NCBI GenBank assembly: GCA_964350165.1
Contig: CAYGJA010000003.1
Location: forward strand, 4,233-68,232
Length of the DNA: 64,000 nucleotides
Source of the DNA: an uncultured Candidatus Saccharibacteria bacterium
GTDB lineage: Bacteria > Patescibacteriota > Minisyncoccia > Phycocordibacterales > UBA1006
Direction: 5' to 3'
A program made the position numbers and the translations under genes. Under the pieces are notes generated by a model, which saw nothing but the letters and a program-made list of their open reading frames with translations, had not been told where the DNA came from and did not search any database. Numbering within the stretch: the first letter of the stretch is position 1; each line of letters starts with the position of its first letter. Shown one piece after another: positions 4,749 through 54,202 of the stretch.

Positions 4749-4820
4749 GGCGTGGTGGTGAAGTGGTAACACTACGGTCTGCAAAACCGTCATGCGCGGG
4801 TTCGATTCCCGCCCACGCCT
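4749..4820 (+). tRNA. tRNA-Cys (anticodon GCA), 72 nt, no encoded CCA
   Basis: Acceptor GGCGTGG/CCACGCC; anticodon stem ACGGT/ACCGT with loop CTGCAAA (U33, GCA, A37); T arm GCGGG-TTCGATT-CCCGC; discriminator T. Confidence 0.85.
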
Positions 4821-4822
4821 CA

Positions 4823-5011
4823 TATGACATTAGGTCGAGGGACAGTAGTCCTTCGGCCTTTTGTTATACATGGTGTTGCGGGAATCGAAAGACGGAGGCC
4901 GCGAAGCCGCCCGCAGGGCGTGGCCGAGTCAGGGTCGTGAGCGTATATTTTCTTAACTGCGTAGCAGTTTTTGAAAATAACGACTCCTGACCGATTCCCG
5001 CCCACGCCTCA
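4823..5011 (+). repeat. tRNA-3'-associated element copy 1: ~169 nt GC-rich insert beginning (T)ATGACATTAGGTC, followed by a 20-nt direct repeat (4992-5011) of the tRNA-Cys 3' end (4803-4822)
   Basis: CGATTCCCGCCCACGCCTCA occurs at 4803-4822 (T-loop to 3' end plus CA) and again at 4992-5011. The intervening sequence is homologous to the insert after tRNA-Leu(TAG) at 6885-7064, sharing ATGACATTAGGTC, GGCCTTTTGT and GCGGGAAT.G.A.GA.GGCCGC blocks. Confidence 0.7.
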
Positions 5012-5013
5012 AG

Positions 5014-5059
5014 AAAACAAATCCCCCGCAAAGCGAAAGCTTTGCGGGGGATTTGTTTA
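5014..5059. terminator. Bidirectional intrinsic terminator between the tRNA-Cys unit (+) and tRNA-Leu(TAA) (-)
   Basis: Perfect inverted repeat AAACAAATCCCCCGCAAAGC-gaaa-GCTTTGCGGGGGATTTGTTT: a 20-bp stem flanked by A/T runs on both sides. Confidence 0.75.
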
Positions 5060-5065
5060 AAAATG

Positions 5066-5150
5066 TGCCGGAGGCGGGACTTGAACCCGCACGCCGTATA
5101 AGGGCAAGGGATTTTAAGTCCCCCGTGTCTACCGATTCCACCACCCCGGC
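5066..5150 (-). tRNA. tRNA-Leu (anticodon TAA), type II with long variable arm, 85 nt
   Basis: Minus-strand sense: GCCGGGG-TGGTGGAATCGGTAGACACG-GGGGA-CTTAAAA-TCCCT-TGCCCTTATACGGCGT-GCGGG-TTCAAGT-CCCGC-CTCCGGC-A. Anticodon loop CTTAAAA gives UAA. Confidence 0.85.
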
Positions 5151-5214
5151 AAGGTTTCGGTACGAGCAGTATGCTAGAAACGTCAGGGATATTCAAGCGG
5201 TATACTTAAGGACA

Positions 5215-6645
5215 ATGAAAAAAACAACCATCTACTACGATGCAGACTGTCCAACCTGCACTGTTTATATGAATTCTAGCCAAGTCACAGGACTAGAATG
5301 GCAACCTAATACAAACTCGGATTCAAAAAATAAAGACAAAGAAATCTTGGCCACCACTGCGGATGGCGAGACCGTCGGTAATATCGAGGTTCTGGCCCTC
5401 ATAGAATCAGCCAAAGGCAACACTCGGCGAGCGACCTTGCTTCGCAATCCCTGGCTACAACCAGTGCTCAGAATAGGCTACCGCCTGGTGGCTCATTATC
5501 GCAAATACCTAACCGGGCCACAGTCGACCTTTTTTTGGATCAAGACTCTGATTGGCATTGGCCTCCTGGGGGCCTCAGTTGCCTCCTGGCGACTCTGGAC
5601 CAGCTGGCATGACTTTCCGGCCGCTCCACTCCTAGGAAGGGCGGGAGAATGGCTCTTTGAATACGGTTCACCAGTGCTCGGACTCGTCTATCTGACTGCT
5701 CTTTTGGGGCTTATTTTCACCAAAAAGAAAACGAGCTTTTTTGTACTTATACTTTTGGGAGTCAGTGCACTGCTGGTAATCGGAGACCTCAATCGCCTGC
5801 GTCCCTGGTTATATGAATTCCTGTTGCTGCTCAGTGCTCTCCTACTGTTCGACACAAAGAAACCGAACGTTATCCCCGCCTCATTCCTGGTTATTCTGGC
5901 CGGGACCTATTTCTGGGGTGGTGTACACAAATTAAATAGCTATTTTGTTCACGAAATCTTTCCTTGGTTTATCTCCCCCATCACCGGCGGAAATCTTGGA
6001 GCAACTCCAGAAACAGCCCTGGCCCTTTTTGTTGTGGCGGTAGAGGTAAGCATAGGGGCTCTTTTGTTAAACAAAAAAACCAGACTTTTTGCGGCTATCC
6101 TTGCCACTCCTACTCATCTTTTTATTGTTACTGTACTTCCTATTGGGCACCACTGGGGATATGTTATTTTCTTTTGGAACTTGGCCCTGCTGGGGATTGT
6201 CTGGCTGAGCACCAAAACAACTTTTGTGCGCGGTCATTCGATTGCCCTGGCGTTAGCAGTCATCCTAGCTTGGTTACTACCGGTCGGGAATTTATTTGGG
6301 ATTTGGGATAATTATCTATCCAGCGCACTCTATGCCCACGAAACCGATCATGGATACATTGTTGTTTCGAATGCCTCACTAGCAGGACTTCCTGAGGGTG
6401 CACAGACGGCTGTTATTACTTGGCCCCACGAACCCAACACCATCGCCATCAGTACGCTCATGTGGTCTTACGATAATTACAATACCGCGCTTTATACCAA
6501 CCCCAGGGTCTACACCGCCGCCCTCTCGGCTGTCTGCCAGATAGATAACACGGCCAAATTATATCTACGGGCACAGACTCGTTTGTTCCGAGAAAAACCA
6601 GGACAAATTGTCACCTGTGACATATTGCAAAAGCGGAGACGTTAG
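5215..6645 (+). CDS. DCC-family thiol-disulfide oxidoreductase (DUF393) fused to a large polytopic membrane domain (HTTM-like, tentative)
   Basis: N-terminus MKKTTIYYDADCPTCTVYMNSS carries the YDGDCPLC-type DUF393/DCC motif; the rest is 10+ predicted TM helices. The track ORF start at 5053 overlaps tRNA-Leu(TAA); ATG at 5215 is in frame and preferred. Confidence 0.55.
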   Translation: MKKTTIYYDADCPTCTVYMNSSQVTGLEWQPNTNSDSKNKDKEILATTADGETVGNIEVLALIESAKGNTRRATLLRNPWLQPVLRIGYRLVAHYRKYLTGPQSTFFWIKTLIGIGLLGASVASWRLWTSWHDFPAAPLLGRAGEWLFEYGSPVLGLVYLTALLGLIFTKKKTSFFVLILLGVSALLVIGDLNRLRPWLYEFLLLLSALLLFDTKKPNVIPASFLVILAGTYFWGGVHKLNSYFVHEIFPWFISPITGGNLGATPETALALFVVAVEVSIGALLLNKKTRLFAAILATPTHLFIVTVLPIGHHWGYVIFFWNLALLGIVWLSTKTTFVRGHSIALALAVILAWLLPVGNLFGIWDNYLSSALYAHETDHGYIVVSNASLAGLPEGAQTAVITWPHEPNTIAISTLMWSYDNYNTALYTNPRVYTAALSAVCQIDNTAKLYLRAQTRLFREKPGQIVTCDILQKRRR

Positions 6646-6663
6646 GATAAACTCGGAACACAT

Positions 6664-6736
6664 CCGCTCGTAGCTCAGTTGGTAGAGCAGCTGGCTCTTA
6701 ACCAGACGGTCGTAGGTTCGAATCCTACCGGGCGGA
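6664..6736 (+). tRNA. tRNA-Lys (anticodon CTT), 73 nt
   Basis: Acceptor CCGCTCG/CGGGCGG (one G.U); D arm GCTC-AGTTGGTA-GAGC; anticodon loop CTCTTAA gives CUU; T arm GTAGG-TTCGAAT-CCTAC; discriminator A. Confidence 0.8.
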
Positions 6737-6799
6737 CACGTCCGCCCGGAGCCAACCAAGCACCGAGCGGAAGTAGTCAATTTTTTGACAATAAAAGAT

Positions 6800-6884
6800 G
6801 CCGGAGTGGTGGAATTGGTAGACACGCTTGCCTTAGGAGCATGTGGGGTAACCCGTGCTGGTTCGAGTCCAGTCTCCGGCACCA
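6800..6884 (+). tRNA. tRNA-Leu (anticodon TAG), type II, 82 nt plus genomically encoded CCA (6882-6884)
   Basis: GCCGGAG-TG-GTGG-AATTGGTAGA-CAC...; anticodon stem CTTGC/GCATG with loop CTTAGGA gives UAG, G37; variable arm TGGGGTAACCCGTG; T arm CTGG-TTCGAGT-CCAG; acceptor 3' TCTCCGGC-A-CCA. Confidence 0.85.
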
Positions 6885-7141: not shown

Positions 7142-8494
7142 TTAGGAAGGAAGATTATCTAAGAAATCTTTTTTCTTTTTCTCCAGTTCATCCTCCTCGG
7201 ATTCTCCCCAAGGGTCCTCGGAATCAAAATCATCTCCCTCGTCACCCTCCACCTCCTGACCAATCTGAGGCTCAATATCGTCGATGGACTGCGGAGCGCT
7301 CTCAATAGCTGACTTGGTCATATTATCCAGGTCGGTGTCATTTGGACTCAGCTCTCGGCTGATAACGTCTTGGAGTTCTTTCTCGGCCTGTTCTTGTTCT
7401 TTTTGTTCTTTGTATCGCAAGTAGATTCGTCGTCCAACCAAAACAATAACCAGCAGCAATATCACAATCACCAACCAACCCAAGAACGTCCGTGGCAAGA
7501 ATCCGCCACTTGTGGCACCGGCAGCTGGGCGACCATCACTATCGTATTCGTTGATATCATAATGCACCGCACTAGCTTGGGAGCCAGTGGTTGGATTGGT
7601 ATAGAAAACAATAGCCGCTGCCGCCACTCTAGTTCCCTCTCGCAGGGCCGTTACGACGCGGACGTTTACTTTGACATCGCCGTCTTCGTCTTCTTCTAGG
7701 TCGCCAAGGTCAAACACAGCTGCGTGTTCTTTGCGCAAATACACCCCTTCACCGGCTGATAGGAATTCGGTGTTATCAGGCAGTTCTACTTTAATAAAAA
7801 CGTCATCGATTTGAGTATTAGAAACATTTTGATAATTGATTTCGTAGGTCAAGATATCTCCGACGGTAAAAGTCTCGCGATCATCGGTGATATCAAGCGC
7901 AATATGAGCCGGAACTGGGGGCTCGGCTACTTGGTTATTGGTTTCATTATTAGTTTCGTTATTGGTCGTATTGTTGGTAGTATTATTGGTTTCGTTGTTG
8001 GTGGTATTACTGCCGTTATTGTTTGGAGTCCCGCCTTGATTTACATTTCCATTTGGTTGTTCAATAACCGTAATGTTGGTACCACCATTGTATCCAGCCT
8101 GTTGACCAGGAACCGGCAAGGTAATAAAGCTGATCGTAGGCCCGTACACGATACCGTTACGGTTCTGCCCTACGACGCGCGCGTAGTAATTGGTGTTTGG
8201 TAGCAGGTTGTTCACTTCGACAGAGATATTGTCCGAAAATCGAGAATGACTACGCGATACGGTTGATTGCCCAAAAGAAGTAGTCTGCCCATATTGGAAA
8301 AAAGTCTGTGGTCGGTCCGCCCGATCTCCACCTACGTTGACAGCATAACTACCGTTCAATACAGCGGAAGTTTGAGTAACATTAGAAGCACCACCCGTCA
8401 GCACGGTCAAGTTGGTTGACTGGGCCGAGGCCGGAACTGCCGAAAATATAAAAATGCTAAATAATGATAGCGAAAATGCGAGTATTTTTTTCAT
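7142..8494 (-). CDS. Cell-surface protein: signal peptide, FN3-like domain, Asn/Thr low-complexity linker, DUF11-like repeat domain, C-terminal TM anchor with acidic tail
   Basis: Signal peptide MKKILAFSLSLFSIFIFSAVPASA; ...TSAVLNGSYAVNVGG...YARVVGQNRNGIVYGPTISFIT (FN3-like); TTNNETNNTTNNTTNNETNNETNN tract; TFTVGDILTYEINYQNVSNTQIDDVFIKVELPDNTEFL (DUF11-like); TM GWLVIVILLLVIVLVG followed by an E/D-rich tail. Confidence 0.55.
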   Translation of the reverse strand: MKKILAFSLSLFSIFIFSAVPASAQSTNLTVLTGGASNVTQTSAVLNGSYAVNVGGDRADRPQTFFQYGQTTSFGQSTVSRSHSRFSDNISVEVNNLLPNTNYYARVVGQNRNGIVYGPTISFITLPVPGQQAGYNGGTNITVIEQPNGNVNQGGTPNNNGSNTTNNETNNTTNNTTNNETNNETNNQVAEPPVPAHIALDITDDRETFTVGDILTYEINYQNVSNTQIDDVFIKVELPDNTEFLSAGEGVYLRKEHAAVFDLGDLEEDEDGDVKVNVRVVTALREGTRVAAAAIVFYTNPTTGSQASAVHYDINEYDSDGRPAAGATSGGFLPRTFLGWLVIVILLLVIVLVGRRIYLRYKEQKEQEQAEKELQDVISRELSPNDTDLDNMTKSAIESAPQSIDDIEPQIGQEVEGDEGDDFDSEDPWGESEEDELEKKKKDFLDNLPS

Positions 8495-8680: not shown

Positions 8681-9220
8681 ATGAAAAAGAAACTCTTCAC
8701 ACTGGTGCTGGTGGTGATTATCTTGGCAGCCATTATCTATCCCTACGGGGAGAAAAAAGGCTGGTGGGATGATTGGTCGTCAAAACCTACCACCACGAGA
8801 CAACGGGGGTTCTACCCCCGAGAGACCTACCTGCTAGGTCAAGATACGGCAAGCTACGACCGGGACAGCCTCCTGGTCATTTTCCGAGTGCTGTCTTCAG
8901 ACAGCACCTATGTAATCAGCACTGCCGGGGTTCTGAATATGGGGGTGGCGCAAATCACCCCCAGCGACATTACCCACGGCAGCTTCCCAATCATGGCTCG
9001 CTGGGAGGCCCTGGACGGCCGAATAGTGGCCCCCAGAACCAACCTAAACTGGTCCGCGATCCTGATGAACATGCAGGATGGGGGGAATGTTTGGCCTCAA
9101 GAGATGAACTCGGTCAGGCTATCTTTCACAGCGGACCAGACCAACTTTCTGGCAGCCGCCGACACGGTGCCACTAAAAAAAGCCACCCTGTGGCGGGTAA
9201 TGAAGAAGACAAAAAAATAA
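8681..9220 (+). CDS. Hypothetical secreted protein (signal anchor MKKKLFTLVLVVIILAAIIY)
   Basis: 179-aa ORF with an N-terminal hydrophobic signal; no recognisable catalytic motif. Confidence 0.4.
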   Translation: MKKKLFTLVLVVIILAAIIYPYGEKKGWWDDWSSKPTTTRQRGFYPRETYLLGQDTASYDRDSLLVIFRVLSSDSTYVISTAGVLNMGVAQITPSDITHGSFPIMARWEALDGRIVAPRTNLNWSAILMNMQDGGNVWPQEMNSVRLSFTADQTNFLAAADTVPLKKATLWRVMKKTKK

Positions 9221-9266
9221 AAACAAGAGGCGGCAGACAGAGTTGCCGTCTCACAACACCAGTTAA

Positions 9267-10262
9267 ATGAAAAATTTCGCAGTTTCGGTACTAGTTGTTG
9301 CTGCTTATTTTCTTCTCGGCCTTGGTGTCGGGTGGGTAATAGACACAGCAGCAGCCCAGCTACTAGGGGTGGAGCCTACTAGCTGGCTGGTCATCCCGGG
9401 CACGGCAATTCTCGTGGCCTATTTACTGTTCACGGCTAGCACGGTCATAAAGATCGTGCCCGGCCAAGAAGCGGAAGTTCGCTTTCGCAATGCTTTTTTT
9501 GCCACGGTAAAGAGCGGTGGCGACTTACTTTTACCCCCTGGATTTTCGGGGATAACCGTAAAGACAAGTACGAGCCAAAAAACGCTATCAACAACGGTTA
9601 TTGACCGGAACGGGCTCGAGATACCCGTGGAGGTAACAATGGACTACCGTATCCACGGCAGTCGAAAAGCCTTGACGTTGATAGATACGGACAAGAAACA
9701 GACGCTAGAGGGTCTCCTTCAAGAGATTCTAGAGAAAGTGTGCGCCGCATTCCAGGACTATACGGCAAAGCTACCTATAGTCATATTCAACCTGAAGGGA
9801 AAAACCTCAGAAGTGCGAGTGGAAATGAATCGAGATCTGCTCAGAGAAGGACTGAGTATAGAAGAAATTACAAAAGGATTCAGGGCAGCCAAATGGGACA
9901 AATCCATATTCCGGGTCGCACCGGATCCCCCAACAATCGTCTTCTACGATTGTATCCACGTCCTCGCCTTGACGGTAAAGGACGTGGAAGTTCCAAAAAA
10001 AATCCGAGAAGAAATGGAGCGTCTTCTCCAAGAGTTCATCGAAACAGCTGCTGCTGGAGCAGAGATGGATGAAATTTTAAACAGGATGAAGGAACAGGTG
10101 AAGGAGGGAGGAAACCCAGACCTTGTCCTCGGAAATCTCTACAAACGCCTTGGCAAAGTAGAAGGCGGTCCCACGGTCAAAAAATTGATCGTGGATGCGG
10201 GCGAGGGCAATAACCTGATGGCCAAAATCCTCGCGGCCATAAATACGGCCCGCAGCGAATAG
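9267..10262 (+). CDS. SPFH/band-7 (stomatin/prohibitin-like) membrane protein
   Basis: Two N-terminal TM helices then IVPGQEAEVRFRNAFFATVKSGGDLLLPPGF...TVIDRNGLEIPVEVTMDYRI, matching the SPFH pattern (vp.g..av..rfG.....pGl....P......v..r.q.....q...T.D...v.vd.vv.yrv); coiled-coil C-terminus. Confidence 0.55.
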   Translation: MKNFAVSVLVVAAYFLLGLGVGWVIDTAAAQLLGVEPTSWLVIPGTAILVAYLLFTASTVIKIVPGQEAEVRFRNAFFATVKSGGDLLLPPGFSGITVKTSTSQKTLSTTVIDRNGLEIPVEVTMDYRIHGSRKALTLIDTDKKQTLEGLLQEILEKVCAAFQDYTAKLPIVIFNLKGKTSEVRVEMNRDLLREGLSIEEITKGFRAAKWDKSIFRVAPDPPTIVFYDCIHVLALTVKDVEVPKKIREEMERLLQEFIETAAAGAEMDEILNRMKEQVKEGGNPDLVLGNLYKRLGKVEGGPTVKKLIVDAGEGNNLMAKILAAINTARSE

Positions 10263-10332
10263 CAATTAACAAGTTGGCCTGAATCTCTCAGGTCAACTTT
10301 TCTTTTGCAAAATTTTTAAATTTTAATATTGA

Positions 10333-10626
10333 TTATTGGAACGCTGCCTCGTCCACCCGCACGTCTCCCCCGTCGGTTATCTCGATATAATCAGCGTCAA
10401 CCGTGTCTACAATCAGGCGCATGATCCCAAACACTCCGAGCATAATGGTCAGACCAAGCAAACCCCAAACCATGTGTCGCGAGTATTGGTTAGTGTCTTC
10501 ACCGGCTTTTTTTGATAGAAAATACTGGACAATTCCCCAGATAAAATAAGCAGTGGCTGCTGCCAGCATCAGCTGGATCAAGGGGTTGAGAATAAAAATA
10601 GATATTCTTTTTACTAGTTCGATCAT
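10333..10626 (-). CDS. Small two-TM-helix membrane protein, VirB2/TrbC-pilin-like module (paralog 1 of 5)
   Basis: 97 aa: ...IWGIVQYFLSKKAGEDTNQYSRHMVWGLLGLTIMLGVFGIMRLI. It shares the helix-(K/A)G(D/E/N)..K..-WG..G....G.(F/W)G pattern with the next four genes. Confidence 0.5.
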   Translation of the reverse strand: MIELVKRISIFILNPLIQLMLAAATAYFIWGIVQYFLSKKAGEDTNQYSRHMVWGLLGLTIMLGVFGIMRLIVDTVDADYIEITDGGDVRVDEAAFQ

Positions 10627-10696
10627 TCGTGTAGATTTTAAACAAGCTGCTTACCCAAGCAGGGCACCCAGAGGGTGCCCTGCAAATGTAAATAGC

Positions 10697-11137
10697 CTAT
10701 AGGGCGATTCTTTCTCCAGTACCACCAGTACCAATACCGACAGTGGAAGAAACAAACGCGATGATACCCCAAAGTCCAGTAACCACAAGCATCGCGATGA
10801 TGCCTCCAATCATGGCCCCTCGGGCAGCCTCTTTGTCTTCTGGTCCCTTTGCCAAGGCAAAGCGAACTACGTTGTATAGGAAGTAAGCTAGCGCTACACC
10901 AGAAAGAATGGTGAAGATACTGTTTACCCATACGTTTATGTTGGTCAGGTTGTCCCGAACAGCGGTGTCATCGACGATAGGAACGTTAGCTTCGAGTGGG
11001 TCGATCTGGAATCCAGCTTGACCTCCCGGAGTAACCGCCTGTGCCATTGCATCTTGTGCAATCAATGACCATGCCATTACAGAAACACCAGCACCAGCAA
11101 TCAGGTTGCTAAGTTTTGATTTGATGTTTTTTTTCAT
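10697..11137 (-). CDS. Secreted small two-TM-helix protein, VirB2/TrbC-pilin-like (paralog 2)
   Basis: Signal peptide MKKNIKSKLSNLIAGAGVSVMAWSLIAQDAMA; ...LAYFLYNVVRFALAKGPEDKEAARGAMIGGIIAMLVVTGLWGIIAFVSSTVGIGTGG. Confidence 0.5.
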   Translation of the reverse strand: MKKNIKSKLSNLIAGAGVSVMAWSLIAQDAMAQAVTPGGQAGFQIDPLEANVPIVDDTAVRDNLTNINVWVNSIFTILSGVALAYFLYNVVRFALAKGPEDKEAARGAMIGGIIAMLVVTGLWGIIAFVSSTVGIGTGGTGERIAL

Positions 11138-11224
11138 AAATTTGATATTTGTGCGTTGAACACGAAGTTCAATATAAAAACTAATAATGCACTGATGTAA
11201 GTATACAATGCGTCACCCCCACGT

Positions 11225-11611
11225 CTAGTCCTGGATATAGATACCCGGTGGATTAGCCGTTCCTCCTAATCCAATTCCAAACGTAGACGAGATAAATCCA
11301 ACGATGCCCCACAGGCCAACTAGCACAAACATACCAATTATGCCCCAGACCAACCAGCGCTTGGCTTCTTCTCTTTTGTTCTGATCTCCTTGGGCACTAA
11401 TCAATCGGATAAGCCCCCACATGAACGTTGCCAGGGCTGCTCCGGACAATAGGGCGATTACGGATGTTCCGATAATCTCGGCAAAACTATCAATGATTCC
11501 CTTGAGGGTGCTGGTGTCGGCGCTGGCCACACCAGGCACGGCCAACAAGAACGCTACCACCCAAATATACCGTGACCATGATTGTATTTTTGTTTGCATA
11601 ATTTTTTTCAT
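11225..11611 (-). CDS. Secreted small two-TM-helix protein, VirB2/TrbC-pilin-like (paralog 3)
   Basis: Signal peptide MKKIMQTKIQSWSRYIWVVAFLLAVPGVASA; ...LATFMWGLIRLISAQGDQNKREEAKRWLVWGIIGMFVLVGLWGIVGFISSTFGIGLGG. Clearly paralogous to 10697-11137. Confidence 0.5.
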   Translation of the reverse strand: MKKIMQTKIQSWSRYIWVVAFLLAVPGVASADTSTLKGIIDSFAEIIGTSVIALLSGAALATFMWGLIRLISAQGDQNKREEAKRWLVWGIIGMFVLVGLWGIVGFISSTFGIGLGGTANPPGIYIQD

Positions 11612-11626
11612 CTAAATTAATATACC

Positions 11627-12457
11627 CTACACTCCGCGCAATTGGTCAACGGTACCCTGGATAGCTTCGGCAATCACCCAAGCTCCCAACAGTATGGCCC
11701 CACCAATCACCGCTGCCAACAAGGCTTTCTTGCCGTTCTTTATCTTTTCCTGATTACCACCAGCCGTGACCAACAAGAAGCCCGCATAGATAATCGCCAG
11801 AGCAACCAACGGAATACCAATTACGAATACGATAGTAATCAGTTGACGAATAACGGCAGGTATCGAATCATAAGCAATTGGGTTTTCCAGTAAATCAAAA
11901 GAAAGAGGATCGTCGGCCGACGACGGCGCGGCTGGTTCTGCCCAATTAGCAGGACTGGGGGACCCCCACTGTGCACTTTTGTCACAAGACGTATCGCAAA
12001 AATACCCTAGCTGATTACTAAGATTGACATTGCTCAAACCGGTATTAAGCGCAAGGACTCCATCCACAAAAACCTTTACAGAAACCTTACAAGCAGGAGA
12101 ATTGCTTCCGTTACATTTATCGTCTCCCAAAGTAAAAGCATGTGTGATTACGGTATTAAAAGTTCCCCCGGCAGGGGCCTGAGTAGTCAAGGACCCAATC
12201 TCACCATTACGATTCCAAGCCTCCACTCGGACTACGTTGCCCGTACAATTGTTAGCGTTTACGGTAATGGTGGCGTTTGGTGGATTAATATCCAAATACC
12301 AACCAGTAGCTTGTGAACCATTGGGGCTAATGGTTGCAGAAGAAATCGAACAATTAGGCTGTGCCCAGGCTTCAGCTGTTCCCATGGCAACAGTACCAAT
12401 CACCACCAAAGCAATCCCTATAACGGCAACACCTATTTTTTTAAAAAAAGTCATCAT
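11627..12457 (-). CDS. Secreted protein: Cys-containing ~100-aa ectodomain fused to a C-terminal pilin-like two-helix module (paralog 4)
   Basis: Signal peptide MMTFFKKIGVAVIGIALVVIGTVAMGTAEAWA; ectodomain ...NCTGNVVRVEAWNRNGEIGSLTT...CNGSNSPACKVSVKVFV; C-terminal ...IPLVALAIIYAGFLLVTAGGNQEKIKNGKKALLAAVIGGAILLGAWVIAEAI. Confidence 0.5.
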   Translation of the reverse strand: MMTFFKKIGVAVIGIALVVIGTVAMGTAEAWAQPNCSISSATISPNGSQATGWYLDINPPNATITVNANNCTGNVVRVEAWNRNGEIGSLTTQAPAGGTFNTVITHAFTLGDDKCNGSNSPACKVSVKVFVDGVLALNTGLSNVNLSNQLGYFCDTSCDKSAQWGSPSPANWAEPAAPSSADDPLSFDLLENPIAYDSIPAVIRQLITIVFVIGIPLVALAIIYAGFLLVTAGGNQEKIKNGKKALLAAVIGGAILLGAWVIAEAIQGTVDQLRGV

Positions 12458-14574
12458 AGATCTGGAATATTTAGTAGTGAATAAGCCCCATCAGCACCCA
12501 AGAACCTCAATACTGTTGCCACAAGCAACCAAGCGATAACAACAATAATTAATCCTGTGAAGAATTTTCCAAAAGCACCTTTTGCTTGTTGCAAACGACT
12601 TGGATTCCCCCCACTGGTTAGTATCATTATACCAGTAATGACAGACATCAAACCAGCCAAAGGAATCACCATGAGGAAAATAAAATTAATAATATTAGAA
12701 ATTAATTCTACAAAATAATTATAATTACAGTCGTTTTGACAAGGAACAAGTGGTTTTGTTTGACTATCGTCAGGAACAATTCCAATCTCTCTGAATTCTT
12801 CGAATTCTGCTTCCATCTGCACATCGTCATTCAATTGGATAATGATACCGTTCCCCCTTCCCACTATTTCCATAAGGCTGGTGGTGGCGTTGAATTGTCG
12901 CCAAGCGGCCAAACGCCAACCAGTATTCGGCGTGGCCACAACCTCGATCAAAGACCCTACGGGATACGTCCCCGCCCCGGCAACCGTACCTCCACCAGCG
13001 GGAGTGACGTTAACAGACAGTGTCTTGCTTGTATTAGCGGCAAAATTAGCAATCAATTCCCTGTTCCCCAACATAGTCGCAATTGCTCGCTTGGACGTAA
13101 GTGTGGCGCCATTTTCTAACTCCCAATTCAAGAACTGGTATCCAGTATTTGGAAAGGCGTCGATGTTTACGTCGGAATTAATCGGATAGGTCCCCTCTCC
13201 CTGCACGCGACCGCCAGAAGAATCCACATTACCGTCAGTTTTGATGGTGATTTTTAGGGAATATTCTTTGGCTAATGGATTGGCAGACCAGCGACCAACA
13301 GAAGAAGGCATGTCACAAGCCCCAAAACAATGAAAACCAATTGCATTCATGCTCGTAGTACGGAGCCCCGCTCCACGGCTACTATGCAGAATCCCCAGAG
13401 AGTTAACCGGGGAGACGTCTTCTATTTCTATAAAAAACTGACAAGCTGGAAAAAGACCCAAATCACACCCACCATCCCCCAGGTTGGCTGTCGTAGATAG
13501 CTCCATAATATCCAACGATTGATTGTAGGGATTGCTGGTTAGATCAAAACCAAATAGAGCATCATTAAAATCCAACTCTTGGCTGGAAACAGCAATCGCT
13601 CCCGGCAAAGTAGTCTTGAGACCAATGGTTACTTTTAGTTTTTTGCCATAACAATTCGTTGCAAGCCATTTTATCTCGACCGGCAAGGTTCCTCCATCAT
13701 AGGAAAATAAAAGATTTCCTTGGGGGTCAAAATTAACCGGCCCAATTGTACAATCAGATTGTGTTTGGATATTTCCACCCGAGCTATCAGAAGATGGCAG
13801 ATAGGGCGATATCCCCGAAGCAAAGACAGCCGTCAGAGTGCGATCACTATTGGTAAGCTTGACCTTGATTCGAGGATTAGTCGAAACCCTAACGCCACCT
13901 TCGGTCCATTCCAAAAGATAATTTCCCGGATCGGGTAATGCCTGCACATTGACCTCGGTATCGATAGGGAACGTTCCACCACCAATCGCCCGACCGTCGC
14001 CTTGCGCATTCAGAGCAAGTGTATACGAGGACTGAAACGCCTGGGTGGTAATGGGATTGATGGTGGTAGTGGGAGGAGAGTTACCAGTACCCCTATTGAA
14101 TCCAATAACGTCCTTGCTTGTGGAATACAGGGGAGTGGCTTGGCTTGAAAAAATCTCCACCGATGGCCCATCAGAAAAAGTAAGATAATACTGACATTGA
14201 GGAGACGATCCATCATCCCTACAACCTTCCTCACCAATATTAATAGTGGCATTTTGAAGTTTGACGATGGCATTGGTTGGACCAGTGCCAACAGAAATAG
14301 TTCTGTCTGCAACAATCACATTCCCGAGGGAGGTTCTCCCCCATACGCGCAAATACACCGTTGACCCCTGACAATTGCTCAGGGTGGCATCAAGAGCCAC
14401 TGATCGATTAGTGCGAGTATACCAGGCAGACTGATTACCGGCTGGATCAAGCTTTACCTCAGACACCACACAAGTGTTTTGAGCAAAAGCATCATCGCCA
14501 ACAAAAGTTAGCCCGACAAAAAAACCAATAATTCCGACCAAGGCTATTATTTTTTTGATTACTTGTTTTTTCAT
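12454..14574 (-). CDS. Large secreted protein: two copies of the same Cys-containing ectodomain, three List-Bact/InlB-B-type repeats, C-terminal pilin-like two-helix module (paralog 5)
   Basis: Signal peptide MKKQVIKKIIALVGIIGFFVGLTFVGDDAFA; domain copies ...SNCQGSTVYLRVWGRTSLGNVIV...CRDDGSSPQCQYYLTF and ...ATNCYGKKLKVTIGLKT...CDLGLFPACQFFIEI; repeats GGGTFPIDTEVNVQALPDPGNYLLEWT, GEGTYPINSDVNIDAFPNTGYQFLNWE, GAGTYPVGSLIEVVATPNTGWRLAAWR; C-terminal ...MVIPLAGLMSVITGIMILTSGGNPSRLQQAKGAFGKFFTGLIIVVIAWLLV. Confidence 0.5.
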   Translation of the reverse strand: MKKQVIKKIIALVGIIGFFVGLTFVGDDAFAQNTCVVSEVKLDPAGNQSAWYTRTNRSVALDATLSNCQGSTVYLRVWGRTSLGNVIVADRTISVGTGPTNAIVKLQNATINIGEEGCRDDGSSPQCQYYLTFSDGPSVEIFSSQATPLYSTSKDVIGFNRGTGNSPPTTTINPITTQAFQSSYTLALNAQGDGRAIGGGTFPIDTEVNVQALPDPGNYLLEWTEGGVRVSTNPRIKVKLTNSDRTLTAVFASGISPYLPSSDSSGGNIQTQSDCTIGPVNFDPQGNLLFSYDGGTLPVEIKWLATNCYGKKLKVTIGLKTTLPGAIAVSSQELDFNDALFGFDLTSNPYNQSLDIMELSTTANLGDGGCDLGLFPACQFFIEIEDVSPVNSLGILHSSRGAGLRTTSMNAIGFHCFGACDMPSSVGRWSANPLAKEYSLKITIKTDGNVDSSGGRVQGEGTYPINSDVNIDAFPNTGYQFLNWELENGATLTSKRAIATMLGNRELIANFAANTSKTLSVNVTPAGGGTVAGAGTYPVGSLIEVVATPNTGWRLAAWRQFNATTSLMEIVGRGNGIIIQLNDDVQMEAEFEEFREIGIVPDDSQTKPLVPCQNDCNYNYFVELISNIINFIFLMVIPLAGLMSVITGIMILTSGGNPSRLQQAKGAFGKFFTGLIIVVIAWLLVATVLRFLGADGAYSLLNIPDL

Positions 14575-14579
14575 AAGAA

Positions 14580-15929
14580 CTATTCAGAAAAAGCGTTTTC
14601 GGAGCCTAGATTAAGTCCACCCTGTTTTGGAAAAGCCTCGTTAATGGCCTGGTTAGTACGGACCACTGCGCTTTCTGGAGCCAACAACCCGGCGTTAACA
14701 TCACGAATCAGACGTCGAAAAGCGGCTTCGGTTTCGGCTGCATTGGGGTCGTACCAGGCTCTGGCAATAATGGCTGAATTATAGAAAGTCTGAATGTATT
14801 CTTCATCAGAAGGTCGAGATTGCAATAACCCCGAATAAACTGGTGGCAACTGCAAGCCGTACGCCAACCCCACCCCATAACGACTTCCCGTCAATTCTTG
14901 CATCACCTGCAGGGCAACCAAGGGATTCTTGGAAGCCTTGTTGAGCATCATGGATTGCATGGTAGCAAAAGTGGCTTTTGGCATATCACGCATCTGAGGC
15001 AACAAAGCCACACCAACGTTGATATTAGGATTAATGCGCAAGAATGTCCTCACCTCGCTAGCATAACCAAAGTACACCGCCAAGTCTTCTGCCAAAAACG
15101 CGTCGCGAGTGTTAGCCATGCCTGTATTCCAGCTATAGTGGGTCTTGGTAGGGTCTGTAAAAGAAGTATAAAATTCGACGGTTTGAGCACTAAAATCCCT
15201 GATGTTTGTAAAGTCCTGAGACAAAACCGCTAGAAATCTGTCACGACGTGGCTGAACAATCGGATTGCGAGTCTGCAAAAACATGGCAGACAGGATATCT
15301 TTGGCATGGTTTACATTATCAAAAGAACCCAATCCAACCGCGCTGAGATCCACCGACACCGACACCGCATCGGTAACTTGTTCAGAGAAGGCAATAAATT
15401 CGTCCCAATACTCGGGTGGGCGCACGATAAAATCAGAGGACAATAAATTCTTGTTGTAGTACATCACCAGCGGGTCCAAAATAAAAGGCAATCCTAATGC
15501 GCCTTGATCAGACAGGAGCAAATCCGCCATATCTACATAACTGGATTGAAATGTCTGCTTGGGCAATCGAGCATAGCTAATCGGAATGACTTTGTCTTGA
15601 TACTGGACGATTTTGTTATGTGGCAACACAAAAACGTCAGGCCCCTGCCCAACCGCCAGTGCCTCTATGAGCTCTCTGTCAAAAGTGCTTTCATTTTTTT
15701 GAACATATTCGATTTTGAGCGTGTCATTGTTGTCCTCCAAGTCACCAATTGCGCTCTCGAAATAAGTTGGAGACAAAACCCCCCAAATAGTTACATTACC
15801 TGCGATTTGTGGTCCCTGGTTTGATTTTCCAATAGGAATAATCTGAGAAAAAACCAATACCGCAAACACAAAAATAGCTCCAAAGATAACCAGTGATATG
15901 ATTTGGAATTTTTTGGTTTTACTTTTCAT
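14580..15929 (-). CDS. Extracellular solute-binding protein (ABC transporter SBP family 1, sugar/MalE-like), membrane-anchored; no permease or ATPase genes adjacent
   Basis: N-terminal anchor IISLVIFGAIFVFAVLVFS; ...VTIWGVLSPTYFESAIGDLED...GQGPDVFVLPHNKIV (family-1 SBP hinge pattern); 449 aa. Confidence 0.6.
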   Translation of the reverse strand: MKSKTKKFQIISLVIFGAIFVFAVLVFSQIIPIGKSNQGPQIAGNVTIWGVLSPTYFESAIGDLEDNNDTLKIEYVQKNESTFDRELIEALAVGQGPDVFVLPHNKIVQYQDKVIPISYARLPKQTFQSSYVDMADLLLSDQGALGLPFILDPLVMYYNKNLLSSDFIVRPPEYWDEFIAFSEQVTDAVSVSVDLSAVGLGSFDNVNHAKDILSAMFLQTRNPIVQPRRDRFLAVLSQDFTNIRDFSAQTVEFYTSFTDPTKTHYSWNTGMANTRDAFLAEDLAVYFGYASEVRTFLRINPNINVGVALLPQMRDMPKATFATMQSMMLNKASKNPLVALQVMQELTGSRYGVGLAYGLQLPPVYSGLLQSRPSDEEYIQTFYNSAIIARAWYDPNAAETEAAFRRLIRDVNAGLLAPESAVVRTNQAINEAFPKQGGLNLGSENAFSE

Positions 15930-21965: not shown

Positions 21966-22187
21966 TTCTATGGGTCGAATTCAACATCACCTGATCACAT
22001 CCTTTGTTCGCCTTCTTACCATACACCATGTATGCACTTGTACACTATGCACACATGGATTTTTGCTTTTTTAACGATAAAAGCATCGGGCTGACGTTTC
22101 GCGTCATAACAGCCATCACGCTATTGCAACAGTGCAATAATCGACCGATTCGGCCTCAGTGAGCAAGCTCATCTGGGCTTTATATCG

Positions 22188-23637
<1,450 letters not shown>

Positions 23638-23867
23638 ACTGGAAGATGAACCATAAATGGTTCATCGTATAGTAAGAAGACGAACAAAAAATGTCATTCG
23701 CCAACTTAATCAAAATTAAACTGGATTGTTTAGACTCTCTCCGGCGAGAGAGTCTGTGATGCTGAATTGTCAAAGTCCTTCGCGACCCATTCGTATGGGG
23801 CAATTCAAAAGAAAAGACCCACTGCAATCAGTCGTGTGGCCAGTATATAGAGTTACAGAAATGTGTC

Positions 23868-25230: not shown

Positions 25231-26793
25231 TTATACCTTCACCCAAAACCCTTCGTCGGGAAAGGGTCCGGGTATTTTTTTGAACCCAAAGTCGCCCAGA
25301 TCATAGGTGACCCCACCCATCTGGGCCTCGAGGTCTGGCCAACACAGGACCACCCCCCCAGAGGGGACCACTCGGGCTATGTTCGCGAGCAGACTGAGTC
25401 GGTAGAGCTCATTAGGACCCTTTTCTGGGACACTAATGTCATCCATGCCGCCAAGGATGACTATCGGCAAAGACTCGTCTGCAGCCTCTACTAGATGGGT
25501 GAGCATGTCCCCATTTTGAACACTGATCTTGGGAGTAATCATCTTGCTCTCTGCATTGATATCAACCCCCACAAATTCTGCCTGCGGGGCATATTTTTGA
25601 AGGGTTTCGGCGAAACTTTTGAACTCCTCCTCTTTAGACCCACAAGCCAGAGTAGTGATTACTCGAGCTCCAGAGAGGGTTTTTTTCAATATTTGGGCAC
25701 CCTCTTTTTGTTCAACGAGGATTCTATCAAAATACCCTTTGTCGTACCCTTGCCCCGAATAAGACAAGAGAGGAGGTACCAGGTTCGAACGCGCCTCGCT
25801 CAAAGACGGGATTTGAACTTCATCCAATTCTCCCAAAAAAGCCCGCAAGGTGCTTCCTAGTTTTACCCAGGACTCCTCCCCGCTTCGTCTCAGCCAGCGA
25901 GAGACTTCCATAACTTGTGACCAGCTGCCTTTAACCCCCTCCATAATTTGTTCGCCTTTGTAGTAGGCGGTGCCTATCACAAGAAACCCGATGATGGCCT
26001 CGACCTGATCGGGACTAAGCTTGGGGCCCCTGGGTTCTCTCTCTTGAGAATACTCCTCTAGACCCCTCATCAGGTCGTTATCTAGAGCGTGGTTCCAGAT
26101 ATCATCTAGCTCCTGACGCTCCTTTTCGTCAAGTTCTTGGGCCAACAACGTTCCAGCCGTTATCCCAACTGCGGCTGTCGTCGCGGTCCCGTATCCTTCC
26201 ACCACCCCCCTCACATACTCTCGCAAACCCAAACCCATCACGGTGAGGGTAAAAGCTCCGGCGGCTGCGAGGGCAGGTCTAGAGTCCCGCATAATCAGGG
26301 TGGTGGCCAAAGCCTCTTCTGTGGCCATCTTTCCAACGCCATCCATAAAATCAGTTGGAGTTAGAGGAAGAGCCTCGGCCACTTCCCAAACGGTAGTGTC
26401 TTGCAAGAACTGCAGGTCCACCATAACCACTGGCTGGTGGTTTTTGGGTGGATTCGTGGCCGTCTTGTACAGACAAACCCATTGTGGTTCGCCTGCTTCA
26501 TTGATCCCGCTCATCCAGAGCGTATCAATGGTTACGGGCCCCACCGACCTGGTGGTACCCCCCAGAATATGGTCCAAGTGGGCTGTCACCCCACTTTGGG
26601 CAATTTGCCGAGTGGTCTGGGCCGAAGCCGCTAGAGGGACATAGACCCTGCTGGCAGCCCCGGGACACTTTGCACACCTGTTTCCCGCGGTCCCAAAGGG
26701 GACCTGGGCTAGGGTGGTCGTAGATAGAAAGAAAAGCAAGGTGGCCACGAGGGTGGCCGAGCGGAGGAAATTTTTTTTTTCCATTTTTTCCAT
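25231..26793 (-). CDS. Secreted multi-domain protein A: signal peptide plus ~190-aa N-terminal domain shared at near-100% DNA identity with 29951-31861; C-terminal domain unknown
   Basis: MEKMEKKNFLRSATLVATLLFFLSTTTLAQVPFGTAGNRCAKCPGAASRVYVPLAASAQTTRQIAQSGVTAHLDH... The same 190 aa occur in the 636-aa protein. The C-terminal part (...FVGVDINAESKM...VVPSGGVVLCWPD) is vaguely Rossmann/methyltransferase-like and is not called. Confidence 0.45.
   Translation of the reverse strand: MEKMEKKNFLRSATLVATLLFFLSTTTLAQVPFGTAGNRCAKCPGAASRVYVPLAASAQTTRQIAQSGVTAHLDHILGGTTRSVGPVTIDTLWMSGINEAGEPQWVCLYKTATNPPKNHQPVVMVDLQFLQDTTVWEVAEALPLTPTDFMDGVGKMATEEALATTLIMRDSRPALAAAGAFTLTVMGLGLREYVRGVVEGYGTATTAAVGITAGTLLAQELDEKERQELDDIWNHALDNDLMRGLEEYSQEREPRGPKLSPDQVEAIIGFLVIGTAYYKGEQIMEGVKGSWSQVMEVSRWLRRSGEESWVKLGSTLRAFLGELDEVQIPSLSEARSNLVPPLLSYSGQGYDKGYFDRILVEQKEGAQILKKTLSGARVITTLACGSKEEEFKSFAETLQKYAPQAEFVGVDINAESKMITPKISVQNGDMLTHLVEAADESLPIVILGGMDDISVPEKGPNELYRLSLLANIARVVPSGGVVLCWPDLEAQMGGVTYDLGDFGFKKIPGPFPDEGFWVKV
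26197..26775. repeat. Copy 1 of a ~580-bp near-identical direct repeat (N-terminal domain coding region of protein A); partner at 31274-31852
   Basis: Antisense six-frame ORFs 26243-26644 and 31320-31721 are identical (MRVKAPAAARAGLESRIIRVV...AEAARGT), as are 26401-26634 and 31478-31711. Identity begins at ...ccaccacccccctcacatactctcgcaaaccc and runs to the start-codon region. Confidence 0.85.
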
Positions 26794-26939
26794 AAGTACA
26801 GATATATCGGAATTTTACCCTTCCGATGGGGTTTTTGATTTAGAATGAGGTGTACGTTACATTTGCTTGTTTGTCAATATAAAAAACACCCTGCACAGTA
26901 TTATTTTGCAGGGTGCTGGCTTGTTTTCACAAGCATATT

Positions 26940-29816: not shown

Positions 29817-29950
29817 CAGTCGGCATGTTTAAAAAATAAAACCTTATTTAGGTCTGTATGTCAAATATCCCTAAACAAAAACCCGCTCATAATAAAAAAT
29901 ACCAAAAAAGCCATGCACGATGAGCGCACGGCTTTTTAAAACTCAGCCCA

Positions 29951-50434: not shown

Positions 50435-50474
50435 GAATATTACAGGATATCACATCAAAAACTAAATCTCGCCA

Positions 50475-51521
50475 CTACAAAAGTTCTGGGTTTTTAAGTT
50501 TTAACAAACCCCGCAAATCTTTTACCTTGTGAACAGAGTCCCGATGAACAATCAAAAGAGCATCTGGGGTTTCTACCACATAGATATCCTGAACACCAAC
50601 CACCGCAATATGTTTTGTGGCACCATGAGTCAACGTTCCCAAAGCATCAACATAAGTCACGTTAGCATTTTCACATACAAAATCTTTCTCTTTTGATGGA
50701 TTCTGCAATTCAAGTAACGAGCGCCAGTTGCCAACATCACTCCATCTCATTTCTGTTTTCACAACACTCTGCTCTTTTTTGTGAACGGTATACAAATCTT
50801 CAATCGAACCGCTAGGCATAGTTGAGAAAATCTTATCTATATCTGTTGTATCAACAGAATACAAACTCTCGACTTCTTCTAAAAAGTTTCGAGCCTTCAT
50901 TACCTTGTAACCAGTATTCCACAAATAGCGACCTGATTTTACAAATTTTTTAGCCTTACTGTATTTTGGTTTTTCTAAAAATTTTTTCACTCCGTACACA
51001 TCACCCAATCCTTTTCTCGTTATTTTTATGTATCCAAAACCTATCTCAGGATAATACGGTTTAGTTCCTACAGAAACAAGCTCTTCTGGGTTACGTTCAA
51101 CGCGGGAAAAAGCATTAATCAGGGCGTTTTCAAATAAGTCTTCATCAAAAATATAGTGGTCTGACCAGACAACAGCGACCTGCGCGTCAGGATTACGACG
51201 ATAAATATCTGATATTCCCAAAACAATCGCAGGAAAATTATCCTTACGCTCTGGCTCGATAATAATCCGGTCATTAGATACTAAGGGTAGCTGCTCGCGA
51301 ACATGTTCAGAAAAATCTTGATTGCAAACGGTAATCACTTTTTCACTTCCAACAAGACGAGAACAGCGACCCTCCATCAGCTGAAATAAGCTCTTGCTGT
51401 TATCAAAAATCTGATGAAACTGCTTAGGAAAGCACTCGCGAGACAAAGGCCAAAGCCGACTGCCTACACCACCCGCAACCAAGAGAATATACCGATCTTT
51501 GCTTTTATCTTTTGCGTCCAT
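50475..51521 (-). CDS. Sugar-1-phosphate nucleotidyltransferase (mannose-1-phosphate guanylyltransferase-like, ManC/CpsB family)
   Basis: ...YILLVAGGVGSRLWPLSRECFPKQF... N-terminal NTP_transferase motif; 348 aa. Confidence 0.7.
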   Translation of the reverse strand: MDAKDKSKDRYILLVAGGVGSRLWPLSRECFPKQFHQIFDNSKSLFQLMEGRCSRLVGSEKVITVCNQDFSEHVREQLPLVSNDRIIIEPERKDNFPAIVLGISDIYRRNPDAQVAVVWSDHYIFDEDLFENALINAFSRVERNPEELVSVGTKPYYPEIGFGYIKITRKGLGDVYGVKKFLEKPKYSKAKKFVKSGRYLWNTGYKVMKARNFLEEVESLYSVDTTDIDKIFSTMPSGSIEDLYTVHKKEQSVVKTEMRWSDVGNWRSLLELQNPSKEKDFVCENANVTYVDALGTLTHGATKHIAVVGVQDIYVVETPDALLIVHRDSVHKVKDLRGLLKLKNPELL

Positions 51522-51522
51522 A

Positions 51523-54198: not shown

Positions 54199-54202
54199 GA
54201 TC

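Follow-up and report, generated by a model that had tools for sequence, protein, structure and literature searches.

Tandem arrays of genes for VirB2-like pilins are the closest described counterparts of the locus treated here. In the survey of Quinonero-Coronel et al. 2025 (PMC12102498), VirB4 was found in 2,417 of 3,035 Patescibacterial assemblies (80%), where it nests in the monoderm mating-pair-formation class FATA (MPF-FATA) and is usually encoded near dnaA/dnaN. VirB2-like pilins (PF04956, PF18895) were present in 1,948 VirB4-containing assemblies; a pilin gene lay near virB4 in 1,135 of them and none was near it in the other 813 (42%). The same survey counts 441 arrays of 2-11 pilin genes each in 383 assemblies, mostly beside genes of type IV secretion systems (T4SS), with a within-array identity of 25% on average and 54% at most; its authors class the family as pilins and report having detected no adhesins for Patescibacterial T4SS (PMC12102498). 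In Southlakia epibionticum ML1, a predicted series of six pilins stands inside the essential T4SS cluster SEML1_0006-0019 (Wang et al. 2023, PMC10633639), and a 2025 review names this T4SS as the only monoderm one that possibly builds a conjugative-type pilus (PMC12857230). Here we analyze a five-gene array of this kind at positions 10333-14574 of a 64,000-nucleotide stretch of DNA, hereafter the window (contig CAYGJA010000003.1 of assembly GCA_964350165.1, positions 4,233 to 68,232), and weigh whether it could be the pilin set of a T4SS encoded elsewhere in the genome.

The initial annotation had reported five minus-strand genes with a common C-terminal module. The five open reading frames (ORFs) were confirmed with exactly these coordinates, and all five gave PF18895 (T4SS_pilin) hits. 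In the order of transcription they encode proteins of 706, 276, 128, 146 and 97 aa; the first two genes overlap by 4 nt, the subsequent intergenic gaps measure 15, 87 and 70 nt, and the G+C content is even over the array. The features, in the same order, are as follows (domains of the 706-aa protein from local hidden Markov models (HMMs) and alignments).

12454-14574, minus strand: position 1, ORF of 706 aa with three PF18998 stretches and a PF18895 match of 30.2 bits; orthologues at the same position in six other genomes
aa 1-31 of the 706-aa protein: signal peptide
14041-14475: first Cys beta-sandwich of the 706-aa protein
about 13807-14016: its InlB B-repeat 1
13276-13755: its second Cys beta-sandwich
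about 12784-13242: its InlB B-repeats 2-3, followed by a Cys-x3-Cys loop
12460-12744: its T4SS_pilin hairpin
11627-12457, minus strand: position 2, 276 aa, PF18895 37.0 bits, PF04956 (TrbC) E 0.003; signal peptide, one Cys beta-sandwich (11942-12355), disordered linker, strongly conserved T4SS_pilin hairpin (11630-11893)
11225-11611, minus strand: position 3, 128 aa, PF18895 42.2 bits (the best of the five); signal peptide, hairpin (11243-11533), GIGLGG tail
10697-11137, minus strand: position 4, 146 aa, PF18895 28.1 bits; signal peptide, conserved 30-aa N-terminal segment, hairpin (10703-10981), GIGTGG tail
10333-10626, minus strand: position 5, 97 aa, PF18895 20.8 bits; INPLI motif, hairpin (10348-10626), acidic C-terminal tail

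All five proteins terminate in, or are made up of, one module in whose alignment two hydrophobic helices, the first of them long, flank a short loop rich in Lys, Arg and Glu, with identities among the window paralogues of about 31% on average and 50% at most. The PF18895 gathering score of 26.6 bits is passed by four of the five proteins, and the 97-aa protein, which stays below it, matched our local module HMM with E 1e-25. Searched with an HMM built from the five modules, the complete set of six-frame window ORFs yielded just these five (E 1e-26 to 1e-40); no sixth copy was present in any frame (next-best ORF E 0.77). This test is partly circular, the Pfam result is independent of it, and by these profile matches the membership of the array in PF18895 can be regarded as established. 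The two helices of the family are also seen in AlphaFold2 models: the 276-aa protein has a leader helix, a seven-strand sandwich at residues 37-138, a disordered linker and helices at 199-231 and 236-275 (mean predicted local distance difference test score 68), and the 128-aa protein a leader, helices at 33-72 and 77-110 and a disordered Gly-rich tail. Lys/Arg-rich loops are read from the sequences.

Sec-type leaders of 31-32 aa, Lys-rich at the start and hydrophobic in the core, with an AxA-type site (AMA|Q, ASA|D, AWA|Q and AFA|Q as read from the sequences), precede the 146-, 128-, 276- and 706-aa proteins and are missing from the 97-aa protein, in line with the first description of two of the three small proteins as bearing signal peptides. 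The Gly-rich GIGxGG tail, first described as frequent, holds for the 128- and 146-aa proteins and not elsewhere. Gene callers start the 128-aa gene at the ATG at 11599, giving 124 aa, while the full-length start of the 97-aa gene is supported by its N-terminal INPLI segment, which is conserved in relatives. A further motif, NPI-x-YD-x-IP, directly precedes the hairpin of the 276-aa protein. Because three members consist only of a leader (absent at 97 aa), the hairpin and a short tail, the hairpin itself must have a function. The proteins would insert as membrane hairpins with both ends outward.

Small size, two hydrophobic helices and clustering would also suit holins, bacteriocin or immunity proteins, or another unrelated membrane family. 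We consider such an origin of the small proteins extremely improbable: T4SS_pilin is the only Pfam family above threshold for them, the best PHROGs matches (E 0.04-0.1) are families of unknown function and include no holin or phage family, and a phage or toxin context is lacking. By its gene content (IF-2, RbfA-side genes, GyrA, ribosomal protein S1, Pth, GroEL, RNase J, MscL) the window belongs to the core chromosome, and the synteny of the array is conserved.

In order to compare the array across genomes, loci were recovered through relatives of GyrA: L003, L006, L013, L015 (GCA_021209525.1), L024 and L025, with GyrA identities of 95-69% to the window. The nearest named GyrA relatives, at 65-69% identity, are Ca. 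Pacebacteria, Nomurabacteria, Campbellbacteria and 'Patescibacteria group'. Since these best named relatives are Patescibacteria, the organism is a Patescibacterium (candidate phyla radiation, CPR), probably of the Parcubacteria/Paceibacteria type judging from these matches. The order was the same in seven of seven genomes: gyrA, usually a methyltransferase gene, a gene for a solute-binding protein (SBP) of the SBP_bac_1 family, and exactly five pilin-module genes. One GyrA relative at 66% identity does not have the array at the gyrA site. Size classes follow the position. The product is large at position 1 (327-875 aa across genomes), variable at position 2 (128-312 aa) and small at positions 3 (about 111-132 aa) and 4 (about 120-146 aa), and at position 5 it is small and leaderless (84-99 aa). 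In five of the six related genomes, these position-5 orthologues close the array; the call in L003 is 77 aa, with an internal start.

The paralogues are thus clustered, and conserved as a cluster in six relatives, where scattering would have spoken against the first interpretation. Moreover, the best cross-genome match of a module was to its own array position for 35 of 35 modules (best-scoring domain per protein), and paralogous modules within one genome share about 30% identity. Lineage-specific duplication, loss or conversion was not seen in the seven genomes. Judged by sequence, the five genes are old, non-redundant orthologous groups. Such fixed groups argue against simple amplification for antigenic variation and are expected of a heteromeric assembly with distinct subunit roles.

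This bears directly on the idea that one pilin has been amplified into five redundant and interchangeable versions that serve antigenic or host-range variation. VirB2 arrays have been suggested to serve variation in Bartonella, Anaplasma and, tentatively, Patescibacteria, and the low published paralogue identity (average 25%) has been linked to possible adaptation to different hosts (PMC12102498); the paralogue identity in the window is similar, with a mean of about 30% and a maximum of about 50%. However, seven genomes agree in the number, order and size class of the genes, every module is closest to its own position, and the architecture differs by position, with or without leader and with or without ectodomain. 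We therefore regard interchangeable variants as quite improbable.

The composition of the locus had initially been thought to be undescribed, a view that the 441 published arrays and the essential Southlakia array do not support. Like the former (PMC12102498), the window has tandem PF18895/PF04956-type genes (five adjacent ones, where at least two, in tandem or with one gene between them, define an array and 2-11 are reported) in a Patescibacterial genome, with low paralogue identity and no relaxase context. In contrast to them, it holds a fixed five-member orthologous series instead of a variable amplification, it stands behind gyrA and the SBP gene and away from virB4, and two of its members carry large exchangeable ectodomains, a kind of pilin fusion not described there. 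Southlakia epibionticum ML1 likewise has several sequence-divergent, structurally similar VirB2-like pilins in a monoderm epibiont with a presumed role at the host interface. It belongs to the Saccharimonadia, whereas the nearest named relatives here are those given above, its array lies inside the T4SS cluster instead of being detached, and no ectodomain-bearing members are reported in the available portions of that source. In the literature covered, a fixed five-gene set behind gyrA and an SBP gene is not described. What is new with respect to known arrays is the fixed five-subunit organization, the detachment from the T4SS core and the rapidly exchanged ectodomains fused to pilins.

Next, we compared the conservation of module and ectodomain. 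Between the window and L003, identity was 95% for GyrA, 96% for the SBP, 95% for S1 and 88-93% for the small pilins (90% for the 128-aa protein), compared with 86% for a DUF11-type surface protein, 69% for the 706-aa and only 47% for the 276-aa protein. In the 276-aa family, module identity to the window protein was 82-90% for nine closer members, 57-58% for two distant ones and 42% for the most distant, while ectodomain identity was 22-40% across all eleven (25-40% in the nine closer) and only the Cys scaffold was kept. Nonsynonymous divergence (dN) from L003 was 0.76 for the 276-aa ectodomain, 0.08 for its module and 0.03 for GyrA. Outside this family, the nearest relatives of the module bear unrelated domains at the N-terminus (FN3-like and others) or nothing but linkers rich in Gly, Pro, Thr and Asn. 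In L015, L024 and L025, other large ectodomains occur at position 1 and a mere linker at position 2; in L013, both positions carry a different ectodomain, FN3-like by our reading and without a Cys-sandwich. At position 1, the most diverged part of the protein is the module itself (60% between window and L003). Ectodomains at positions 1 and 2 are thus replaced between genomes or sharply diverged, with the module of position 2 holding at 82-90% identity. Such swapping between pilin module and ectodomain is not described in the literature covered. As exchangeable cassettes on a constant assembly module, the ectodomains would allow host recognition to change without a change in assembly.

The DUF11-type protein of this comparison is encoded at 7142-8494 (minus strand). 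Its 450 aa comprise a signal peptide, an FN3-like region, a low-complexity stretch rich in Asn and Thr (NNTTNNETNN...), a DUF11 repeat, a transmembrane helix at the C-terminus and an acidic tail; conservation of this protein is far higher than that of the ectodomains of the pilins.

The two large members look like carriers of binding domains, as first suggested. The three InlB-B-type repeats noted in the 706-aa protein match PF18998 (divergent InlB B-repeat, Flg_new_2) in three stretches, aa 194-256, about 445-516 and about 526-597 (106.3 bits, E 8e-31; threshold 23.6 bits). The Cys-containing ectodomain is also borne out, with a length of about 135-160 aa instead of the roughly 100 aa first given, and the 706-aa protein has two copies: a region of the 276-aa protein aligns with two regions of the 706-aa protein, sharing a conserved C...NCxG...GxxxC...PxC pattern. 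Foldseek searches of the ectodomain against the PDB returned only weak immunoglobulin (Ig)-like sandwich matches (E about 2e-3, TM-score 0.2-0.4); the top ones are lipid-binding proteins (UNC119, RhoGDI, NPC2), a lead and not a fold assignment.

A profile of 17 copies of the Cys-sandwich, searched against 1.84 billion representative proteins, yielded 214 clusters (50% identity) at E <=1e-3 and 87 at <=1e-10, with one to four copies per protein. The pilin hairpin also occurs in 123 of the 150 top family members, most of which continue for 150-250 aa after it. According to Pfam, these tails are SLT lytic transglycosylase, Peptidase_M15_4, YkuD or NlpC/P60 domains in the scanned representatives; Patescibacteria-like proteins with sandwich, hairpin and enzyme are found among P0164, P0176, P0179, P0192, P0196, P0209, P0217 and P0276. 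Members in which the module HMM finds no hairpin end in Peptidase_M23 or GDSL lipase. With both ends of the hairpin outward, the sandwich-enzyme fusions would place a binding-type sandwich and a cell-wall enzyme outside the cell. The Cys-stabilized beta-sandwich is a small, previously unnamed family that travels with the pilin hairpin and cell-wall enzymes, and, by these domain architectures, the hairpin is widely used in the phylum as a carrier of extracellular domains, a role for which we found no description in the literature covered.

In the species-representative genome scan, only one distant Saccharibacterial locus was found, so the lineage of the window is missing from the representatives covered. 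Contig CAMJKD010000001.1 of a Saccharibacterial metagenome-assembled genome (locus L012) encodes, at 9818-11470 (plus strand), a 550-aa protein with an N-terminal T4SS_pilin hairpin (aa 53-124, 46.6 bits) followed by Big_2 Ig-like domains, the reverse order of the window fusions; a Flg_new (Listeria-Bacteroides repeat) protein is nearby, and no VirB4 was found in the 10 kb upstream, the only side searched.

These architectures raise the main rival explanation, in which the hairpin is a non-polymerizing double-pass anchor for surface domains and the small members belong to a membrane complex, such as part of a T4SS channel. The abundance of sandwich-hairpin-enzyme proteins and the Saccharibacterial protein with its N-terminal hairpin agree with an anchor; the linkers that precede the hairpin (PT-, TN- and G-rich) are reminiscent of stalks spanning the wall, and fold searches did not single out pilins. 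Against this, three small proteins without any cargo are conserved as three orthologous groups in seven genomes, the abundance signals described below suggest one very abundant small subunit, as in a polymer rather than a channel part, and the literature assigns the family to pilins in arrays mostly beside T4SS genes (PMC12102498). Overall, we judge a pure anchor to be unlikely, though it deserves to be taken seriously.

Signals of subunit abundance come from codon usage, divergence and a conserved RNA structure. With GroEL, S1 and IF-2 as the reference, the 146-aa gene ranked first of 39 non-reference window genes in codon-adaptation index (0.744), and the 276-aa (0.638) and 706-aa (0.603) genes were near the bottom. 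Synonymous divergence (dS) from L003 was 0.33 for the 146-aa gene, 0.65 for the 128-aa gene and 0.45 for S1, compared with about 1.8 for GyrA and SBP. A promoter-like site (11227-11200) lies upstream of the 146-aa gene, and an RNA hairpin just 3' of its stop codon:

10659-10683 (inner stem; extended 10643-10699), minus strand: RNA hairpin with an 11-bp GC-rich stem and no T-run

Its folding energy is -34.6 kcal/mol (z -5.3). The hairpin has an identical counterpart in L003, is maintained in L006 by two compensatory pair changes (A-U to G-C, G-C to C-G), and is absent in L013 and L015, whose intergenic gaps measure only 9-15 nt. An mRNA 3'-end, stabilizer or attenuator element is its probable nature. 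Each of these signals is weak alone; jointly they point to the 146-aa protein as an abundant subunit and to the two large proteins as minor ones.

The module had been called VirB2/TrbC-pilin-like. This stands as far as the family is concerned, since PF18895 is T4SS_pilin and is treated as VirB2-like in the literature, while the direct link is only weakly positive. The best PF04956 (TrbC/VirB2) scores, 18.2 bits for the 276-aa protein (E 0.003) and 13.4 bits for the 128-aa protein, do not reach the cutoff of 27.9 bits; further weak matches were P0192, P0020 and the position-2 gene of L015. In hhalign, the module and nine authentic VirB2/TrbC sequences from MPF_T plasmids aligned over 54 colinear columns including both helices, with P 0.0034 and a probability of only 9%. 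Module profiles (A1, A4) run against all PDB chain sequences gave nothing beyond membrane-helix noise, such as the TM1-TM2 pair of G-protein-coupled receptors. Four of the five proteins match NF045849 (E 1e-8 to 9e-5) at 22-35 bits, below the curated cutoff of 40; this is the Mbov_0395 family of pilin-like conjugal transfer proteins from Mycoplasma integrative and conjugative elements (Tenericutes), which are monoderm and belong to the same MPF-FATA branch as Patescibacterial VirB4. Homology to canonical VirB2, asserted in the literature, is plausible from these comparisons, with weak support in our own searches. A class III signal peptide of type IV pilins was rejected, as there is no G|F-T-L-I-E motif and no prepilin-type domain among the Pfam and NCBIfam hits.

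The gene order is not that of a virB1-virB2-virB3-virB4-type operon: in the MPF_T plasmids fetched, virB3 follows the virB2/trbC gene in eight of eight cases and a lytic transglycosylase gene precedes it in six, whereas the neighbors here are gyrA, methyltransferase, SBP and Band_7 genes. In the Agrobacterium T-pilus, VirB2 is the major pilin and VirB5 the tip adhesin. Agrobacterium VirB2 and the window pilins share a leader peptide, two hydrophobic helices and a short loop, and a combination of an abundant hairpin pilin with minor contact subunits would be common to both systems; in the window, however, the loop is about 7 residues longer and charged, virB1, virB3 and virB4 are not adjacent, and adhesion would reside, by fusion, in the pilin-module proteins themselves instead of in a separate VirB5. 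An analogy, and no more, can be drawn to the minor-pilin sets of type IV pili (PilA with FimU/PilVWXE) and type II secretion (GspG with GspHIJK), which are also fixed paralogous sets with one abundant member and others that are of low abundance and tip-located, and which also combine a conserved hydrophobic assembly segment with variable globular domains. Fold and export route are unrelated, and the window proteins have a C-terminal hairpin rather than an N-terminal single helix and lack the class III signal peptide.

Taking these results together, we favor, with moderate confidence, the reading of the locus as the pilin set of a T4SS encoded elsewhere, with the 146-aa protein as the major, the 128- and 97-aa proteins as accessory and the 706- and 276-aa proteins as minor, adhesin-bearing subunits. 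The array would be the extracellular pilin set of a monoderm Patescibacterial T4SS of MPF-FATA-like type, whose core machinery (VirB4, VirB6, VirB3/PrgI) would lie elsewhere in the genome. Each protein would be exported via Sec or YidC and reside as a membrane hairpin with its Lys/Arg-rich loop in the cytoplasm. The T4SS would then extract the small pilins and polymerize them into a short pilus built mainly of the 146-aa protein, to which the 128- and 97-aa proteins would contribute as small accessory subunits. The 276- and 706-aa proteins may enter at low stoichiometry, at the tip or along the shaft, where their Cys-sandwich and B-repeat ectodomains could contact and bind the host envelope, and exchange of the ectodomain cassettes would retune host recognition.

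Several points weigh against a T4SS pilus. The hairpin often stands between an N-terminal sandwich and a C-terminal cell-wall enzyme, an arrangement equally compatible with a plain double-pass anchor and with a pilin. The codon index is based on only three reference genes and is applied to short genes, and dS between the window and L003 is saturated (1.6 to >2.5), so that no positive selection is claimed for the ectodomains and only the contrasts in dN and identity count. No pilus of PF18895 proteins has been reported in any Patescibacterium in the literature covered, where a review treats it as a possibility (PMC12857230); cryo-transmission electron microscopy of groundwater CPR cells has revealed pili-like appendages reaching into host cells, with nothing that ties them to this family. 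Finally, no gene for VirB4, VirD4, VirB6 or any secretion ATPase was found by Pfam among the window ORFs of at least 120 aa (including, at a lenient threshold, ORFs of 520, 958 and 636 aa).

The same holds for about 5 kb beyond the window on the left and 10 kb on the right, as read from overlapping contigs (ClpB and PGA_cap on one side; RF-1, FtsEX and CTP synthase on the other), and, as regards VirB4, VirD4 and other secretion ATPases, for the surrounding 10 kb in the six syntenic genomes. The absence of a nearby secretion ATPase had been recorded at the outset, correctly for the 64-kb window and its flanks, and had led to the proposal of a self-assembling surface filament or adhesin system independent of a T4SS. 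We hold this to be very improbable. VirB2-type hairpin pilins, being integral membrane proteins, need an ATP-driven machine to exit the bilayer. Furthermore, VirB4 is present in 80% of Patescibacterial assemblies, typically near dnaA/dnaN, so that an array with no ATPase close by is nothing unusual in the phylum, and 42% of the VirB4 assemblies that also have pilins (813/1,948) have no pilin gene near virB4 (PMC12102498). Of the earlier interpretation as a whole, the pilin-like module, the clustering and the adhesin-like large members are retained, while its novelty and its independence of a T4SS are not.

The immediate neighbors of the array are the following.

14580-15929, minus strand: gene for a membrane-anchored solute-binding protein, SBP_bac_1 (MalE-like; PF01547 E 2.7e-11)
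10271-10299: terminator-like hairpin, 12-bp stem and T-run, between the array end and a convergent Band_7/SPFH gene

The SBP gene stops 5 nt before the 706-aa gene and is directly upstream of the array in all seven genomes, with a gap of 3-16 nt in the five genomes measured; no ATP-binding-cassette (ABC) permease or ATPase genes adjoin it. Its product may work with the pilin set, possibly from one operon, or its place may reflect no more than conserved synteny.

A broader proposal, which we put forward only tentatively, would make the T4SS_pilin hairpin a general Patescibacterial carrier, as suggested by the cargo on the Cys-sandwich and hairpin scaffold (lytic transglycosylases, M15, M23 and NlpC/P60 peptidases, L,D-transpeptidase-fold domains, GDSL lipase). 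In the window it would form a five-subunit heteromeric T4SS pilus with strain-swapped host-recognition cassettes on two minor subunits; the pilus, or a hairpin-anchored layer, could double as a toolkit for docking to and breaching the host, and the SBP might be part of an uptake-oriented apparatus.

Other parts of the window showed the following features. A complete but short 16S rRNA gene (22187-23644, minus strand; 1,458 nt matching the full 1,533-position model) is flanked by Pth and a Na+/H+ antiporter; it is unlinked, with no 23S or 5S gene detected in the window, and unlinked rRNA genes are common in Patescibacteria. Positions 48518-56401 (minus strand) encode a GH6 cellulase, an NDP-sugar pyrophosphorylase, a PMT_2-GH8 fusion (904 aa) and a GT2 cellulose-synthase-like glycosyltransferase (732 aa), which looks like a locus for synthesis and trimming of a cellulose-type exopolysaccharide, unusual in a reduced genome. 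The consecutive ORFs of 520, 958 and 636 aa mentioned above (25231-31861, minus strand) have almost no family matches, with weak protein-kinase/APH-like hits for the 958-aa (E 1e-4) and 636-aa (E 0.36) products. A 179-aa ORF at 8681-9220 (plus strand) has an N-terminal transmembrane helix and a third-position G+C (GC3) of 0.68, compared with about 0.35-0.57 in other genes. It has no counterpart at the site in L003 and L006 and is overlapped by an alternative-frame ORF (8773-9270), so its gene call or origin is uncertain. Four tRNA genes (Cys, Leu, Lys, Leu) cluster at 4749-6884. A mechanically called 530-aa ORF (5053-6645, plus strand) overlaps tRNA-Leu (5065-5150, minus strand), and since relatives and gene callers give 476-479 aa, its true start lies downstream.

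For the biology of Patescibacteria, the locus turns the idea of multiple pilins, perhaps for variation, into a concrete and testable model with five fixed subunits and one probable major pilin. A T4SS with a pilin array is essential for epibiotic growth in the one genetically tractable Patescibacterium (PMC10633639; PMC12857230), and the review literature calls the role of the essential Patescibacterial T4SS completely unknown (PMC12857230). Without overturning current views, the locus sharpens the question of what this T4SS and its pilins do. The ectodomains fused to pilins could be the adhesins missing from the published survey (PMC12102498), and the 706- and 276-aa subunits, with their constant module and fast-turnover ectodomains, are candidate determinants of host range.

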